DNA of 64,000 nt from Cystobasidiomycetes sp. EMM_F5 (GCA_051047955.1 JBPGPT010000013.1:62001-126000); one strand, 5' to 3'; shown: positions 17,810 through 44,115, counted from the first letter of the stretch. Notes: a model not told the origin generated them from the sequence alone. Numbers and translations: made by a program.

Positions 17810-20634
17810 TCAGACCACCCTTAAAGTGAGTTTGGCAGGCGCCAGTCCGATGGTAGTCTTCCAGTCGTCGTCGTCCTCAATTTGAACCAATTCTTTGAGG
17901 CTTTTCGCTTCAAAGATTTTTGTGGCAGTCTTGCTGCTACCCGCACCAGCCGAGCAAGCTACAGCGATATACCAGTCGCCTTCCGGTAGATCGATACCTG
18001 AAGAAATGCATTTTTCTGCTATGCGATCCCGAGCTCCGAGCAAGGAGAGATCTCGTGGAATCTTTAGCAAGAAATTTGACGAGTCCGTCATTATCTTCAG
18101 CGTGATAGTGCTAGACTCCTGAATAGCTTTATGTAATGACCTTGCAGCTTTCAGTGTGCGCGGTGTAGGCTGGAGTGGGGTCGTTTCAACATCGTTACTA
18201 TCAAGCCGAGGGGATGCGAGAATTGTTTCGAGCACCGGAGTATGCAGAGATGACGTGCGTCGCCTATGCACTCTGAGTGATCGTCGACGGCCATGGTTCT
18301 CACTGATGGGGGATGAAAGAGGGCTGATAGGATCGCATTCGTTCATAATGACAGATGGAGTCGGCGAAATGGGAAGATCCTTGTCGACTGCTGCTAGGCT
18401 TAAGCCTGTGTATAGTTGAGGCAGAGCAGGTCTAGTATATGCAGACTTCTGAAGAGACGTTGTGTGAGCACCGTATGTCATCGCAAGGCTTTGCGGAACA
18501 TCTTCCAACAAAGGCGCTGGCGCCGACACAGAGGCATCCCGGTAAAATCCTTCGAAAGCAGCCGGGCAAGACATCATTGGGGAGCTCGTGGAGACGAGGG
18601 AGTCCACAGATGGATTGGAGCCAACACTAGTTGACGATGAGAAATCGAAGCCCAGACCTGCGAACGATCCGGACCTCGAACTCGTTGCGCTGATTGGCGT
18701 CGTGAAGCCGTTGCTAGCTGATGACGAATACTCGAGCGAAGCGATGCTACTGATTGACGAGTTGTGGGTGTGTTCTGACGTTGGCGAGATAGGAGATCCT
18801 AGTCCGACGGCATTCGGCGCCCTTCGGAGCGAAAGATAAGCCGGACTCGGTGTCGCCGCTGTCGATGCAGACACAGGAGGAGCACTGCTCTTACTCGCAG
18901 AGGTGTAATGCTTGCGTAGATTTGACAGACTCGGTCGTTTGAACTTAGGCGTGCTGTGAGGCAGAGGCGGACTCGCCGTGTCGCTCTCCGCACTCGATGA
19001 TCCAGCAGCTCGCTTGAACAAGTTTTTAAATGACTTGCTTTCAGCCAGAGCCGGACTGGAACGCAAAGATCCTATCGGAGATGGGTGTGCTGTACTAGTC
19101 GCCGAAGACATCGCTGAGTCGTCATGGAGTGGCTTGAGAGACGGCCTTCGAAGAGATGGTGTTTGATACGCTGTCGGTGCATCGTAAGCCTCGAGAAAGC
19201 TGCCGGAAGGCATTTCAGGAGGCAGAGACGGATGTGGCTGCAGAGCATGCCGCAGATCCTGCAAAGAGCGGAAATGCTTCATCCCGCCTAATCCGCCACG
19301 GCTTGTCTTGCGAGGAGTCACTGCTGGCATGTTTGTCGTTGCAAGAGGTCGCACACCATCTACATTGCCCGTGGTGTCCACATGTGGCTCGCCGAAACAC
19401 CCCTCTGGAGTGGGTGCATCTCGATGGTAAATCGGAGAGGCAGGAGATACTGCTCTTGAGGAGCTGGCAGTATTGCCAGCACTATACAGGACCGTAGAGC
19501 CCGAGGGCGTACGATTGCGACTGCCGGGACGTGCTGTAGATTCCGTCCTGAGAGAGGCAGTATCTGAGCACGCGGAGGTCGAACCAGCTGTATTGCATCG
19601 CGCACCAGTAGACGAGGATCTCAATGCATTGTTCAATGCAGATGCAAGATGGAAGGACGATGAGGGTGATCGCGGAGGGTAGCTTCTGTATTGATTGACG
19701 TCTGTATTTTCAGCGTCAGGACTCGCGACGGGTACGCATGTCGATGGAATCGCTGGTGCTGCGCGCGGAAACTTGAAGTCTAGGTGTGCTGGATAAGCAG
19801 GTCTGGCTAGGCTAGAAGAGCGTTGAGGTATTTGATTGTATCCGTTGAAGCCATCCTGATGTGCAGCAGCCAATCTCCGAAGGTCCGGCGTGGAGCGCTG
19901 TGTGGCAAGTTGAGCGCGTACACTCAAGTTTCGAGGAGAGTTGTCTGCGTCGAGTCCAGCTGGCCGTGAGGGCCTTCTGACCTGAGTTAGGGGTGAAGCT
20001 ACACCCTCTGGAGAGCGCTCTCTGATACCCGGGTAAGCTAACTGCATGCCTTCAGACTCGCCAGCAAACCTGGCATTGGCAATTGCAGCTGCGACTGCAA
20101 AAGCATTTGAGCTCTGACCGAGAACAGGACTAGGAGGAAGAAGTCCGTCGAGTCCGTTGTCTTTGATTTCGAAAAAGTCGCGTACTAGAGGAAACGAAGT
20201 GACTGCTCTGGGCAATACGAACAGATGTCGCATAAATTGATCAAGCTCGTCGCGTCTATTGGCATGTGTGGTGGCAGTGACAAAGAGAATGACTTTGCGC
20301 GAGAGGCGAGGTACGTTCTGTACCGCTGCGTCTGGATCATCGAAAGCGACGGGAGTGAGTGGAAATGCCAGGCTGAGTCTGTTCCGCAGAATTATGCGTC
20401 AGAAGAATGAATTTTATGCATGGCAAGGACGGCCGCTCACTTTGTACTGAACTCGGTAAACTCATCCCATCGACGGTATATGGTATAGGGTTCGTTGCCC
20501 GTGTCGTTCGAGTCCGTTGCGTCATCCGGAGTATGCGGAACAGTGGATGGAAAAGGGCAGACACGGACTGCATATATCACCTTGCCGCCTACTTTTGAAA
20601 AGTGTGGAACGGCAGCCGACTTGATCTGAATCAT
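17810..20634 (-). CDS. PX-domain and PB1-like domain scaffold protein
   Basis: The N-terminal exon KVIYAVRV...YTIYRRWDEFTEFSTK plus LFVLPRAVTSFPLVRDFF are PX hallmarks. A long S/P-rich linker leads to C-terminal ITLKI...LLKIPRDLSL...IEDDDDWKT...KLTLRVV, with the PB1 basic Lys and an acidic OPCA-like motif. Confidence 0.7.
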
Positions 20635-21809
20635 GGTGGCGAGGCGGACGGGAGTGGGTCGAGAGGTCGACCGGACTCAAGGTAGACGGAAGAGAGACCA
20701 GCGACAGTGACGAAAATTGTGAACGTGATCCTGTTTCAATAGGCGCAGGACAGAGTTAGTGACGTGCTTGACCGAGCTCACGCACAGGTGCGCGCCGTGG
20801 CGAAAGTTGAGCTTGACTTACGTGAGGTCCGGGGACCTACTTGACGTGAGATGGCTTGTTGACTTTGCGTGATACGGGGTTGCTTTGTTCGTGATGAATG
20901 TATGCTTTGCAGTCCCAGCTATCGAGCGTTTCCGGCTGTAGTCTAAAAGTCAGTTGGTTGCCGACGCCCGAGGTTGCGAGTGTGCGGGCGACGGAAAGAA
21001 GAGGGAGGGGCGCGATAGAAGTATTTGAACAGAGAGTACGCAGAGGCGGGCACTGCGATGACCTTTCTGATTCATGCAGGAAATGAGTAGAATTTCGAAT
21101 AACCGAGCCAGCCTTCTGACGTCGGCGGTGTAAGGCTGGTCAAGGAAGACGCGACCAGAGGTGTGCGAGCGCTTCACCGACGTAAACGGTGGAAGCAGGA
21201 CTGAGCTCGAGGTCAGAATATCGACCGTGCGCTTACAATCACTTCACCCGTGAAATGGGTGTGCTCGATCGCGTAGATGGGGCCGACCGCGCGACGGTGA
21301 AAGAGATGGGGGTAAACTCACAGCAGAGCAGATTATAATACGAGATGGACAAGAGCAGTGATGGACGCGCTGCAGAGGTTAGTGGAAGAGCGCGTTGATT
21401 TGAGATTTGAGATTTAGAGGCTGCCGAGGTGAGGGACCTCAAGGGCGCGTGGAAGGGGAGGGTCTGCAGCGAGGAGGGCCGTGTCAAGAGTCAGCTGAGG
21501 GCCATCAATGGATTGGCAACTGGACAAGCAGTTATCGAGAACAATAATGATTCCCCAGTCCTGGCAAGCGAGCCCATCTTCCGAACCCGCTCCGTGTTTT
21601 GGTAAACAAGTGGTCTTGTACAACGCAAAACAGAGCTAGAGTGTGGAGAAGACGCGACGTGTAGAGATGGTCAGTCGAAGACGGGAGAAGATGCGCGCGA
21701 CCGTCGTCTGTGTAGTTGACAGCCGTACGCAAGGTTTGGTTGGCGACCACGTCTCCGCAATGGACACTCCGTCCCTAATCAGCTGCCAGTGCACCCCCTC
21801 CCACAGCTA

Positions 21810-22154
21810 TCAATTGAAGAGGAATACCGCATGTTTGCATCTCTGACAGACCTTTTTGAACATGGCCGGCTTTGGTGGATACTCGTGCTGACCTCCAGCA
21901 CATCCCAAGCCTCTCCGTGTCGTTTCATCGGATCCGGACCCGGATCGAGCAAGGTTTGCTAAAGCCTCGGCATTTCTCCGGTGATTCGCGTAGCTACTCA
22001 CGACAGGCCTGACACGCTTCTGTCCCGAGGTCGCACAAGAGCTGACTCTCGTATTGCTGGTTCTGCCTCTCTTGGAGATTTTGCCTGACACAATAGCTTG
22101 AGTTCCACTTACTCGCTTGGATGCTGCTGAAGTGTTTGCATTGCGAGATGACAT
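21810..22154 (-). CDS. Small basic protein with C-terminal CHCC zinc-ribbon-like motif (copy A)
   Basis: Intronless ATG-initiated 114-aa ORF ending CAGGQHEYPPKPAMFKKVCQRCKHAVFLFN*. The motif is shared with the two adjacent ORFs. Confidence 0.55.
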   Translation of the reverse strand: MSSRNANTSAASKRVSGTQAIVSGKISKRGRTSNTRVSSCATSGQKRVRPVVSSYANHRRNAEALANLARSGSGSDETTRRGLGCAGGQHEYPPKPAMFKKVCQRCKHAVFLFN

Positions 22155-22495
22155 TGGATGAGAGCAGATTACTAAAGATTCAGGCGATAGGCGAATGGAT
22201 GCCGCCTTGTGTGTTGTGTGATAGCGGAATCAAGAGGAGCCGGTGCGACCAAATACCGTCGAATTTCACATTGGCACTGCACTCGGCCACGCAGTGCTGT
22301 TGTGTGTCTCTCCTTTGTGGCCGGGAAAGGTATCCGCAGGGTTCACATTGATAGTTTAACAGCACAAAATGTACAATGCGCAGTACAATCTCTCGTTGTT
22401 CAACAACAAGAACCAACTTCAAAGTTCTGTTGATGCACATCGCCTTCTACCGCACGCGCATCTGCATCTAAATTTTACACCGCGACCCTTCAAGT

Positions 22496-22783
22496 TTACT
22501 GACTGGCTCCGCCGCACTTCGCGCAGAGCTTGTAGTTGGCTGGTCCAGCAGGCCCTGGGCTAAACTCATGCTGACCTCGAGTACATGCATTAGAGCGACG
22601 CACGGGCGCAGGCGCACTCGACATCTGATATAGCTGGATGGCATTACTGAAATGTTGGCCATACATTGCAGCCCGTGGAGGACCTCCCTGAAACGGTTGC
22701 GTTGACAACGCAGGGCTTTGCGATCTACGCGGAGGACTAGGTGCGGCTTGACGGTTTTGGAAGGGAGATCCACTGTTCGGCAT
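22496..22783 (-). CDS. Small protein with C-terminal CHCC zinc-ribbon-like motif (copy B)
   Basis: Intronless ORF from ATG 22783 (MPNSGSPF...) ending CTRGQHEFSPGPAGPANYKLCAKCGGASQ*. Confidence 0.55.
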   Translation of the reverse strand: MPNSGSPFQNRQAAPSPPRRSQSPALSTQPFQGGPPRAAMYGQHFSNAIQLYQMSSAPAPVRRSNACTRGQHEFSPGPAGPANYKLCAKCGGASQ

Positions 22784-23033
22784 GTGAGGTAAGACGAGCC
22801 TTTTCACAAGACAGAATTTGAAGAGGATCTGGATATGAAGGTTTGCGTTTCAGATTTTAGAAGTGGTGCTTGGGAAGCGAAAGAGCACTGGAGACTGCAG
22901 GTATGCAATTTTCTCATACATGGCTCTGCTTGGGGAAAAGGTAGTGCTGTGCTAATCTCACAGCAACAACCTGTGTCTTTTGCCAGTCCACACTTCACAG
23001 CCTAGCACCGTAGTTCTCCTACGTCACTTCTAC

Positions 23034-23188
23034 TTCAGTTTTGTTAAACTCTGTAGCATGCTGTAAATGAAATCGCGCTAGTTTAGCAGTGAGAATACCA
23101 CACCGCAGTTCAGTTTTGTTGAACTCTGTAGCATGCTGTGAATGAAATCGCGCTAGTGCAGCAGTGAGAATACCACACCGCAGTTTTG
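23034..23188. repeat. Direct tandem duplication, 2 x 75 bp
   Basis: TTCAGTTTTGTT(A/G)AACTCTGTAGCATGCTGT(A/G)AATGAAATCGCGCTAGT(TT/GC)AGCAGTGAGAATACCACACCGCAG starts at both 23034 and 23109, with 4 mismatches. Confidence 0.95.
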
Positions 23189-23455
23189 ACACTTTCGTGA
23201 TATCATCGACATCCGCTGACCTGCTGGAACTGAGCGGATATGACCGCCCAATCTACAGAGGTCGTTCGCGTTCTGCCTGTGTTGCCCGGCGGAGGTGATG
23301 CGGCGCTTGTGCGGTTTTTGGCCTTTTAGCTTTTGGAAGACAGGAGAGTGCGATAGGGTCTGAGCGCTGCCAGGTTGCGCTCTTGCAGGATTCACGGGCG
23401 TAAAGTTGTTGACGTGCACAAGCGTTGGGGGCGCGGACTGCTGCCTGGTGGACAT
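23153..23455 (-). CDS. Small basic protein with C-terminal CHCC zinc-ribbon-like motif (copy C)
   Basis: Intronless ATG-initiated 100-aa ORF ending CRLGGHIRSVPAGQRMSMISRKCQNCGVVFSLLH*. Confidence 0.55.
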   Translation of the reverse strand: MSTRQQSAPPTLVHVNNFTPVNPARAQPGSAQTLSHSPVFQKLKGQKPHKRRITSAGQHRQNANDLCRLGGHIRSVPAGQRMSMISRKCQNCGVVFSLLH

Positions 23456-24011
23456 GAAGATGTGGTTCGGCTTTTAGTCTCCAAGCGTAATGTCGCTTGT
23501 AAGCGCTTTCTGAAAGCGAGCGTGTGGTCGACGTGCAGAAGAAAAGGCCCACGTCAGGCGATGTATACCTGTGAATGGCACTTCAAGCTGTGCACTAGCA
23601 GTGCATGCAGTGCATACAGTGATGCACCATGCAACGCAATTGTCACTTTCCGGCGTGCGAACGGCTCTGCGGCACTACTGAGAGAGTAGTAGTGTCTCTG
23701 TAAGACAAAGTCGCAGGAAGACAGTCTTGCAGTCGCAAAAGTGATTGATGGAGCAGCCTTTCAAACGGTGATTTGCGGGTGGTAGAGACCGTTTGCGGAT
23801 TTCTGAAGATAGAATCGACGGGACAGTGCCAGATGTCAGCTGGCGGTACGGAGGTTGTCTGAATTCAAACGTCAGTAAGCAGCTCTCGCTGTATTTAGTG
23901 CGCCTCATTGAATTGTGACGCGTTCGAGGCACTTGATGCCTTTGATATCCGTCGACCTGTCATACGATACTCCTGGAGGTAGATCCGAGCTGGGATTTGT
24001 ACACATTCGCC

Positions 24012-25600
24012 ATGGCGATGGACGGACTAGGCATCGATACATCTGGTGGTGGGCTGAAGGATAGCAGGAAGTTGAGCAAAGGCAAGGCAGCCGAAACGTC
24101 GCAGCAGCAACAACAAATATCAGCGGCCACGAGCTATGTGGTGTCCAAGATTGATGCTGGACAGGCTGTGCTTATCTCGGACGCAGTGAGTGAAGGGCGT
24201 GACAGCTGTGACTATCCATCGCTGATGGCCAATTTGTTGCTCAGGTTCACTGCATCGAATTCCCGTCAATACTCCTACCACCAGGCTGCACGCAAGGCAG
24301 TGTGGTGTCCATATCATGCTCCAGAAATGCTCCAGAGGAACGGCGCCGCGCAGATGACTTTTGGGACCTTCAGGACGATATACTCGCAGCTTTCGGTGAA
24401 ATATCGCCTGCTCCGCCAGCCTTGCGACTACGCAATGTGACTCAGACGTCCGTTACACTGGAGTGGAACAAGCTAGAGCTCGCGACATCGAAACTGCTGA
24501 GCTTGACAATCTGGAGGAATGGCCAGCGCCTTGCGGCGATACCCAATCCGCTCAACAATACGTCTACGAAAGTGTCTGGGTTGGAGGTGGACAAAGACTA
24601 CTCGTTCCATTTAATGATGCGGACAACTGCTGGTAACTTCGCTTCGCAAACCATCAAAACGCGAACACTCACCTTGACCGATACGAGTGGGATAGCTGTA
24701 TGCTTTGGCACTGTCGAGCCTCCGGAATTGTTAGAAGAAGCCAAGGAAGCTCTGTCAGTAATGCAAGCGCGATGGTCGAATCGCATACAGATCGAGACAA
24801 CGCATTTCGTTTGCACTCACCCATCAAATGGAGCAACCCAAAGTTATCGTTCAACTGCCACACAGGCAGCTGGAGGAAGCGATGTACCGAATTCTGCTAT
24901 CGAATACCAAAGGGCTATGCAGTTATCTATTCCAGTCGTGGCGCCCAGCTGGGTTCTATCCTGTCTATCGGAGCGCAAGATGGTGAACATTTCCGCACAT
25001 CCAGTAACAGCGAGTTCATCAGCTGCGCAATCTCAGCCAATGTTGAGCCGCGGAAGCTCGTCTCGAACTTCTCAACAACATCAGGCGCAAGTCCCCCGCA
25101 ACGCGCCGCACCCGCCGATTCAATTACAGAACCCGCCTCCGCCCCGTAAGGCGTCTGTCAGCAGTGTAAGCGGTGCAGCAGCAGCGTCGAACGTTGGCGT
25201 CAAAGAGAACGTTGCGGCTACAGAAACGACCACCAAGGACAATTCCATCTCCGCGACTCCTTCTCAGACGGAAGTGGTCGACCGCCCGAGACCTGAAAGT
25301 CAACCGGTGGTAGTACCGTCTGTAGTCGCGGTCCAACAGGTCGTCAACGTAGACGAGTCCGCTAATCAGGATCAAAGAGTCTCTACGCCCCCTCAGCCGT
25401 CAAAACAGGATACTGCTTCTGTGAAGCCGTCATTCCCTCGACTTCAAACTCAGGCTGAACCTGAGACGCCATCCAAGGAGCGGAAGGAGCTGATTACGGC
25501 TGAGGAGGTGCCCTTGCCGACGGAGGATTCAACTGAGCTCGCAAAGGAGCCTGATGACGCGGAATTGGCAAATGCAAGCATGGAAGATGTGAAGTTATAG
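24012..25600 (+). CDS. CHS5: Exomer subunit Chs5 (CHS5_N, FN3, BRCT)
   Basis: VSKIDAGQAVLISDA|VHCIEFPSILLPPG, LRLRNVTQTSVTLEW...RNGQRLAAIPNPLNNTSTKVSGL (FN3), and TTHFVCT...LSIPVVAPSWV (BRCT). Confidence 0.93.
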
Positions 25601-42059: not shown

Positions 42060-44115
42060 TCATCGACCAAGCGGTTTATACAGCGGTAATTCGGATCGCA
42101 GCGATTGAGAACGGCTATATGAGAGATTGTGAAACGACGAGGGAGTAGAACCTGCTTCGAGTTGACGTGTCCTTGCAACCTTCTCGTGGGTGTGAAACTT
42201 TTCGTGAGCAGCACTATTGGTCGTTTTCCGAGCTTCTTCCGTCAGTCGCTCCTCCTCCTCGAGATCCGCTGCAGTCATCGCTTCGCCTGTAGTGGGAACA
42301 AGGGTTACCCGAATAGTCTACTACGATGCCGATGAGTCCGTACCTGTTTCATCATCCTCCTCGGTCACGCTGGTTGATGCGGAAAGTGGAGAGTCCGGAT
42401 CGTCCGTACCATCTGCCGATGCGGCATCAGAGTGCGCGTTCTCGATAGCAACAGGCGCTCTGTCATCTGTAAGAATGTCTCTCGTCGGAAAGTCGTCACG
42501 AGGGCCAGACTCAATGTCACTTGACATGGCAGTAGCCAGCAAAGGTTTGTCATTCTTGACTGAGTGTGCGGTCGTAGCGGTCTCCTCCCTTTCCTTATCC
42601 GTTTGCTGCTCCGCGGCTAAGCGTTCTCGCTCCTGTCTTCGCTTTCTCACCCAAGCCATACCAGAACCATCATCCTCGTCTATGCTGGAAGGTCTGCTGC
42701 CCAACGACCCTCTGGACGTGTAATTACCCCACTCCACAAACTCTGGCTCATCGTTTCGCGAGGCCTCAATGGCTGGTGTAAACCTGGAACTGGACGACCG
42801 TTGCGCGACCGATGGATACACGATTTTACGCCGGCTGTTGACGCTGGATACAGAGTCATCCGTCTTGACTTTGCGCAGCGGTATGCCTGTTCTGCGACTA
42901 CCGCTATCTGATCCCGAAGCTGAAAGACTTTTCGACAGTCCGAACCCGCCAAACAGGCCGCTGCCTGTCGTGGGCGAGTCCTCGGAGAGTGTAAAGCCAT
43001 CTCGCGATGATACAGAAGAAGATTTCTTTCTGCGAAACAGCTTGGACGCGAACGACATGCCGCCGGTCTTTGTCACTGGTGAGGTAGGAGCGGACATAGC
43101 ATGCGTGCTCCACTGTCCGACCGACGTTGCCGGACTCATTGCCTCTCCTACGCCATCTGACGCGGGCGAGACTGCAAGGAAAGGCAGATTTCCCGGTGTT
43201 GAAGGAGCTTTGAGCAGAGAATCGCCGCCCGACGTACCAGCCATAGTGAGGGACCCGTCGGTACTCCATGATCCGACATCTGCACTGCGACCATCTGCAG
43301 CATAGACATGAACCTGATTGCCGTCTCGATCGGTCAGAATGTCTCTGCCAGTACTGTAGCGTCGAGGTCTAGGATCTGGTAAGGGTGCGAAGCGTATCTT
43401 TGGTCGAGGTGAATTGGCGACTGTCGGTATTTGACGGTCCAAGCTGTCTGCGGATTGTGCACTACGAAATTGAGGACGCGAGAGGGCGAGGTAAGACTTT
43501 TGATAAGGTGATAGACTCGGTGCAGCTCCTTCTGATGTGCCCGTACCGGTCGCAGAAGTATCACGTGCGGCATCAGCGGTCGATACTGGATCTGCCTGTT
43601 TCGTTTCGGACACCGCGTTATCCTGTCTAGTATTCCCTTGGTCAGACTTGGATCTCTGATGTGACATAGGCCGGTGTGCGCTGTTCAAATGCACGATCAG
43701 CTTTGGTCATTTGGGCTGAAAGGGGGAAATGCGAGACATACTTCAACAGTATACCGCGAGACTCTGTCAGGGTGAAGGCTGGATTTGGAGGACTCAGGAG
43801 AGATGGCAGGCTGAGAGTAACACCGTTGGCCTTTGCCGTGTCGATAGCGATTGCATGATTGGCAGCTGACTTCTGTTTGCCCGGTGTTGCTTCATCGCTA
43901 TCAAACACAGGGCTGGCAGGTCTGCTGTTGCGAGCAGCGGTGTTATCTTTCGTCCAGGAGCGCGACAACGAAAGTCTGCGCTTGGGTGACCGGCTACTGC
44001 TGTTTGTTGTATCGGGCGTCAATGGCACTTGTTGACCATCGTCATCTCTGGGCGGCGAACGTGAGCGTGACCTGACGTTCAAGCTGAGACTGAGACGCGC
44101 CAAAGCTCTCGACAT
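42060..44115 (-). CDS. Hypothetical S/R-rich, largely disordered protein
   Basis: ORFs 43642-44115, 42321-43694 and 42060-42278 can be joined by GT-AG introns. Short sequence islands KIRFAPLPDPR, EPEFVEWG and DDGSGMAWVRKRR. Confidence 0.65.

Follow-up and report, generated by a model that had tools for sequence, protein, structure and literature searches.

One His and three Cys residues with a CxxC knuckle and a loop of 12-16 residues make up a classical single-zinc site. The ribosomal protein eS31/S27a carries a zinc ribbon of the form C-x4-C...C-x2-C in a small basic protein, and the Pfam family zf-CHCC (PF10276), the NDUFS6-type zinc finger, has the ligand order Cys-His-Cys-Cys ending in CxxC, also in a small protein. 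Basidiomycetes encode lipopeptide pheromone precursors, which are small open reading frames (ORFs) ending in a CAAX box with the Cys fourth from the end. According to a report on fission-yeast Dicer (Dcr1), its extended domain for binding double-stranded RNA (dsRBD) holds a CHCC zinc site in a surrounding sequence that shows little conservation and is difficult to detect by homology, folding requires zinc, and the ligands are spread through the dsRBD after the RNase III domains and end in C-X-C (PMC3199388). Here we describe three tandem ORFs, O1, O2, and O3, from Cystobasidiomycetes sp. EMM_F5 that end in a common Cys/His motif of this general kind. They lie within 64,000 nt of DNA (GCA_051047955.1 JBPGPT010000013.1:62001-126000), referred to here as the window, and all positions are counted from its first letter. 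An old tandem triplication of a fast-evolving family of small ORFs, unnamed and uncalled, in which the Cys/His positions are conserved, is well supported.

A first-pass annotation of the window had described three same-strand, intronless ORFs that begin with ATG, and all three are present on the minus strand (Table 1). None of them contains an in-frame stop, and they are spaced with starts 629 and 672 nt apart and ends 686 and 657 nt apart. The encoded proteins have a pI (isoelectric point) of 10.5-11.9, and acidic residues are absent from their first 62-72 positions. The N-terminal halves are rich in Ser, Thr, Arg, and Lys, the N-termini of O2 and O3 are Pro-rich, and neither a signal peptide nor a hydrophobic N-terminus was found in O1-O3. 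The common motif consists of C-x4-H, then 12, 14, or 16 residues (O1, O2, and O3, respectively), and then C-x2-C, with the stop following 8, 5, or 8 codons later. The putative ligands fall within 22-26 residues, and the C-terminal strings quoted in the annotation were verified in the translations. A scan of the six frames of the window for CxxGxH-x10-18-CxxC gave three occurrences, exactly at O1-O3, as compared with a mean of 0.1 and a maximum of 2 in 100 shuffles of single nucleotides inside blocks of 1 kb; this pattern had been drawn from O1-O3 themselves, so that this contrast is optimistic. The codons of the putative ligands differ synonymously between the copies (His CAC, CAT, and CAT and third-ligand Cys TGT, TGC, and TGT in O1, O2, and O3).

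Two further observations concern the motif. With a looser pattern a fourth C-x4-H...C-x2-C string is found at 43286-43357 (plus strand), 4 codons from a stop; it is without the Gly, reaches E=0.59 against the family hidden Markov model (HMM), and was rejected as a chance match. The sole DNA-level repeat between the units (21865-21903 vs 22548-22586) is 39 nt long at 74% identity with a core of 23 nt at 87%, and it encodes the C-x2-G-Q-H-E segment of O1 and O2. Third positions are also kept in this repeat, which exceeds what protein selection alone would require.

The relationship between the three proteins was examined with leave-one-out HMMs, an unbiased test that is independent of how the motif is defined, against 1,608 six-frame stop-to-stop segments of at least 25 aa from the window. 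The left-out ORF was the best non-training match in all three tests, with E values of 0.015 for O3 (HMM of O1 and O2), 5e-5 for O2 (HMM of O1 and O3), and 2.9e-5 for O1. An HMM of all three found no further copy in the window, where the next best match had E=0.17. Pairwise BLASTP aligned O1 and O2 at E=1e-6 (34% identity over 59 residues) and O1 and O3 at E=0.006, and in the latter comparison the match falls outside the Cys/His motif, in another block, QHxxNAxxL, that lies just upstream of the motif in O1, O2, and O3 and is not mentioned in the first-pass annotation. The N-terminal parts had been called dissimilar in the first-pass annotation, which is correct only in part, given this block. 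O3 is the most divergent copy, from which the linker of ~17 residues that joins the helix block to the first Cys has been deleted. The sequence comparisons identify O1, O2, and O3 as true paralogs, not chance ORFs. A weak secondary BLASTP alignment between O1 residues 93-113, in its C-terminal block, and O2 residues 35-52, around its helix block, has E=0.72 and may hint, at chance level, at an internal duplication.

The three units were also compared at the levels of DNA and translated frame. Six-frame Smith-Waterman comparisons of the ORFs with 150-nt flanks gave the top score to ORF frame against ORF frame in 3/3 pairs (76 vs 34, 44 vs 38, and 46 vs 37). Between the same units blastn found one 23-nt match only (O1-O2), and in frame-blind global DNA alignments O1-O2 was marginally above shuffles (12/300 reached the score) and the other two pairs were at shuffle level. 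Codon-position identity on the frame-blind alignment carries no information, as the DNA no longer aligns, and the upstream and downstream flanks of O1-O3 have no 7-mers or 8-mers in common. When the codons are aligned, identity is 0.26-0.33 at third positions, which is the random level, and 0.37-0.56 at positions 1 and 2; this alignment is guided by the protein, and the position-identity test is biased for that reason. With third positions random and DNA and flanks at noise, the duplication is therefore old, and the old duplication and fast evolution proposed in the first-pass annotation agree with these values. For a frame position drawn at random from the non-genic part of this window, the probability that an ATG-opened frame of at least 66 codons lies behind it is 0.047, and the cube of this value, with independence assumed, is about 1e-4 for three such frames. 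The stop is at a homologous position in O1, O2, and O3, 5-8 codons past CxxC. That DNA similarity has decayed and yet 3/3 frames are open argues for long-term selection acting on the O1-O3 proteins. At the level of sequence, these results demonstrate that conservation is specific to the ORF frame and that the reading frames have been kept over a long time.

Of the described systems, the zinc ribbon or knuckle of the eS31/S27a type is similar to O1-O3 in having four putative ligands, two short knuckles, a loop of 12-16 residues, and the second knuckle, CxxC, at a hairpin turn (predicted in O1-O3), in proteins that are small and basic. The first knuckle of O1-O3 is C-x4-H and not Cys-Cys, they have no sequence or profile match to any family of this kind, and their predicted fold has a predicted local distance difference test (pLDDT) score of 48-53. 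With Pfam zf-CHCC they have in common the ligand order ending in CxxC and the small size, where order alone does not confer membership; there is no profile match at E<=10, and, in contrast to the fast-evolving tandem trio O1-O3, zf-CHCC is a subunit of mitochondrial complex I that is conserved and single-copy. Like Dcr1, O1-O3 carry a fungal CHCC arrangement in poorly conserved sequence, but an extended dsRBD of that type was rejected, as O1-O3 have no Pfam dsRBD or RNase III domain and their motif ends in C-x2-C. Pheromone precursors were rejected as well, since there is no CAAX box and the last Cys is 9, 6, and 9 residues from the C-terminus in O1, O2, and O3. A broken multi-domain gene does not account for stops at homologous positions, and a relic of a transposon or virus was rejected because neither repeats nor homologues were found. 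The trio is like fungal lineage-specific (orphan) tandem families in being short, intronless, basic, disordered, tandem, fast-diverging, and without detectable homologues. Unlike wholly disordered orphans, O1-O3 retain the Cys/His motif and the helix block across copies, which argues for a structured functional core. Closest in kind are two general classes, the zinc knuckle or ribbon found in small basic proteins and the lineage-specific tandem gene family.

Relatives were sought in several collections. An hmmscan of O1, O2, and O3 against Pfam-A returned 0 families each at E<=10, and PDB sequences gave 4 matches at E 0.16-1.8, none of them meaningful, in line with the earlier statement that no named family was recognised. 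Among 5.8 billion word-indexed proteins, the O2 query gave 4 candidates and the three-sequence alignment query gave 152, none with E<=1. The exhaustive HMMER search of 1.84 billion representatives gave one match, P0001, a highly repetitive protein of 1,498 aa in which 12 weak stretches fall on profile positions 19-64, the low-complexity N-terminal part; it has no Cys/His motif and was rejected as an artefact. The Atlas gave nothing usable for O2, and the best score for O1, 0.77, is at noise level. No metagenome contig was found with the family alignment or with CHS5, the neighboring gene, as a synteny anchor, and viral contigs had no match to the family. The exact O1-O3 sequences are absent from a collection of 15 billion proteins (0/3) in which the contig's neighbor protein is present, as expected from the prediction in the first-pass annotation that gene callers would miss these ORFs. 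The PX-domain gene next to the trio provides a yardstick for sampling. Its own product, P0002, is found at 100% identity and its next best relatives are only 27-34% identical; the best relative named by organism is from Cystobasidium minutum (Cystobasidiomycetes, Pucciniomycotina). With nearest relatives at <=34% identity, no close relative has been sampled, and the orphan status of O1-O3 may be due in part to thin sampling and in part to a lack of small-ORF calling.

Table 1. Positions of the three ORFs, their conserved segments, and the DNA between them
Feature	Position	Strand	Description
O1	21810..22154	minus	ATG ORF, 114 aa, pI 11.4; first acidic residue at position 63
O1 Cys/His motif	21837..21902	minus	C85-x4-H90-x12-C103-x2-C106; stop 8 codons on
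O1 upstream block (HxxNAxxL)	21942..21995	minus	helix predicted, residues 54-71, low confidence
Spacer O1/O2	22155..22495	.	GC (guanine plus cytosine) 0.48; unlike other spacers
O2	22496..22783	minus	ATG ORF, 95 aa, pI 10.5; first acidic residue at position 73
O2 Cys/His motif	22514..22585	minus	C67-x4-H72-x14-C87-x2-C90; stop 5 codons on
O2 QHxxNAxxL block	22622..22663	minus	residues 41-54
Spacer O2/O3	22784..23152	.	GC 0.45; contains most of the 75-nt tandem duplication
Recent tandem duplication	23034..23183	.	2 x 75 nt, 95% identity
O3	23153..23455	minus	ATG ORF, 100 aa, pI 11.9; first acidic residue at position 65
O3 Cys/His motif	23180..23257	minus	C67-x4-H72-x16-C89-x2-C92; stop 8 codons on
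O3 QHxxNAxxL block	23258..23290	minus	residues 56-66

O1, O2, and O3 are housed in a 2.6-kb gap between the PX-domain gene and CHS5. The latter (plus strand, 24212-25600) covers several open frames in which Pfam finds CHS5_N, fn3_2, and BRCT, in agreement with the name given earlier. The minus-strand neighbor consists of a long open frame (17810-20398) and a further exon-like frame (20437-20676), and the PX domain is divided between 20437-20676 and the 17813-20398 frame. This neighbor had been called PX-PB1. Its PX identity is backed by a match in this sequence that is weak and partial (E=0.44) and by the precomputed PF00787 assignments of its relatives, but the PB1 part was not confirmed by Pfam, as the ~130 C-terminal residues that had been assigned to it (17813-18199, minus) have no match at E<=1. 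The inter-exon gaps in the genes flanking the trio are about 40-110 nt. P0002 (807 aa; 17813-20233, minus), the public-collection entry for the PX gene, is an intron-blind single-ORF call from an internal Met. Since the separate upstream frame holds the N-terminal segment of the PX domain, the true PX protein is longer than this entry. An Rfam search of 21000-24200 gave one sub-threshold match (20.5 bits, where the gathering score is 65.5). Neither TATA-like nor AATAAA-like strings were found in the flanks examined near O1-O3. The 75-nt duplication copies the last 11 codons of O3, its stop, and about 40 nt of 3' flank, and the second copy has one synonymous change and a His-to-Asn change ahead of its own stop. 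This duplication shows that the locus is still liable to local duplication.

An AlphaFold model of O1 (three-row alignment; mean pLDDT 47.9) has residues 54-71, across the QHxxNAxxL block, in a helix. A model of the C-terminal halves (mean pLDDT 53.4) has the same helix together with strands at 49-52 and 59-62 that flank CxxC. We propose that one gene unit of ~660 bp was converted by old tandem duplication into three separate intronless protein-coding genes, each of which would encode a strongly basic protein of ~100 residues with a disordered N-terminal half, a short helix (QHxxNAxxL), and the C-x4-H-x12-16-C-x2-C module at the C-terminus. The His and the three Cys of this module would coordinate one zinc ion, with CxxC forming the turn of a beta-hairpin, in the fashion of a zinc knuckle or ribbon, and the basic tail and the metal-stabilised module could together contact a polyanion, for which nucleic acid is the most likely candidate. 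It is purely from the basic composition that we infer nucleic-acid binding and stage specificity. O1-O3 are probably a real tandem family, restricted to its lineage, of small basic proteins that carry a putative CHCC zinc knuckle, and we put the chance that they are real genes encoding such putative zinc-binding proteins at about even.

Several results weigh against this proposal. No homologue of O1-O3 was found in any collection searched, and the intron-blind caller that reported the adjoining ORF left out all three. Codon usage was scored with a measure trained on 22 long ORFs of the window from which credit for mere openness was subtracted. Spurious open frames scored at least as high as the ORF in 14/79 (O1), 8/79 (O2), and 27/79 (O3) cases, and true coding chunks scored no higher in 7/75, 14/75, and 6/75 cases, respectively, so that the codon usage of O1-O3 falls between spurious frames and true coding, in the lower tail of coding chunks. 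An initial codon test, in which the ORF frame was best of six in 3/3 cases, had been dropped, as its negatives contained stop codons. GC content at third codon positions carries no coding signal in this genome. A purine at -3 is expected in the context of a start codon and is missing from those of O1-O3. The register of C-x4-H in O3 is also uncertain; MAFFT sets it in the linker, and BLASTP of O2 and O3 picks the register of the first-pass annotation at only E=0.25. Finally, both structural models are of low confidence (pLDDT 47.9 and 53.4), and the full-length O1 model has no hairpin.

The most serious alternative, which we consider rather unlikely, is that a once-functional small gene was triplicated and that the copies now have no function or a marginal one, being either in decay or young proto-genes, little transcribed and without present-day selection. 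In its favor are the intermediate codon usage and the lack of homologues in the collections searched, promoter or 3' motifs common to the units were not found, O3 is highly divergent and its linker is gone, and the fresh 75-nt duplication at the O3 3' end marks an unstable locus. Decay is difficult to reconcile, however, with three frames that are all open from ATG to a homologous stop despite saturated DNA (chance about 1e-4), with four putative ligands and the QHxxNAxxL block retained in all three, and with similarity that is seen in the ORF frame only.

It is decidedly less probable that the proteins are real but their Cys/His residues do not bind zinc, serving instead as a redox or disulfide, other-metal, or interaction motif in a role unrelated to nucleic acid (for example, mitochondrial import or a regulatory microprotein). 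No zinc-finger family was matched and the structure models are of low confidence. Mitochondrial presequences typically carry no acidic residue and many Ser, Thr, Arg, and Lys, and the N-terminal halves of O1-O3 resemble them in this composition. The Pro-rich N-termini of O2 and O3 are nevertheless a poor fit for amphipathic presequences, no signal peptide or hydrophobic N-terminus points to secretory disulfides, and the set of putative ligands, a His and three Cys that include a CxxC knuckle and are separated by a loop of 12-16 residues, is a classical single-zinc arrangement.

Slightly less probable again, and in our view quite unlikely, is that O1-O3 do not stand alone as three genes but belong to one or several spliced gene models, whether as repeated domains or alternative terminal exons of a minus-strand transcript or as long 5' leader ORFs of the PX gene. 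They are on the strand of the PX gene and upstream of it, the neighboring genes carry introns, and a GTCAGT string overlaps the O2 stop. Each unit, however, has its own ATG close to an upstream stop and ends, past CxxC, in a separate stop at the homologous place, and the introns required would be roughly 300 nt or more vs the 40-110 nt seen beside the trio. The spacers are mutually dissimilar and of lower GC (0.45-0.48), and there is no minus-strand gene upstream, since CHS5 diverges on the plus strand. That the ORFs and their motif are chance products of non-coding DNA, which the first-pass annotation already thought unlikely, is effectively refuted: ORFs of ~100 codons are individually unremarkable in 53% GC DNA (P=0.047 for at least 66 open codons) and the motif was defined after seeing the sequences, but three occurrences were found vs 0.1 expected, HMM retrieval succeeded in 3/3 tests, BLASTP reached E=1e-6, and strand, spacing, length, and stop position are common to all three.

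The trio opens no long-standing question and no phenotype is linked to it; its wider value is for now limited and its interest modest. A tentative possibility that goes beyond the proposal of real genes for small basic zinc proteins is that O1-O3 may be a new, lineage-born zinc microprotein family, composed of a minimal knuckle and a basic disordered tail, that grew by tandem duplication in one poorly sampled branch of Pucciniomycotina. Its members might bind chromatin or RNA, possibly in a stage- or stress-specific manner, with paralogs that diverge under selection and retain just the ligands and one helix. If O1-O3 are real, they are three genes missed by automated calling and a clean case of a small metal-binding module that has outlasted the rest of a microprotein evolved past recognition. 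They would then help the study of orphan-gene birth and improve the annotation of small ORFs in basidiomycete yeasts, and would offer structural work a minimal CHCC zinc site.

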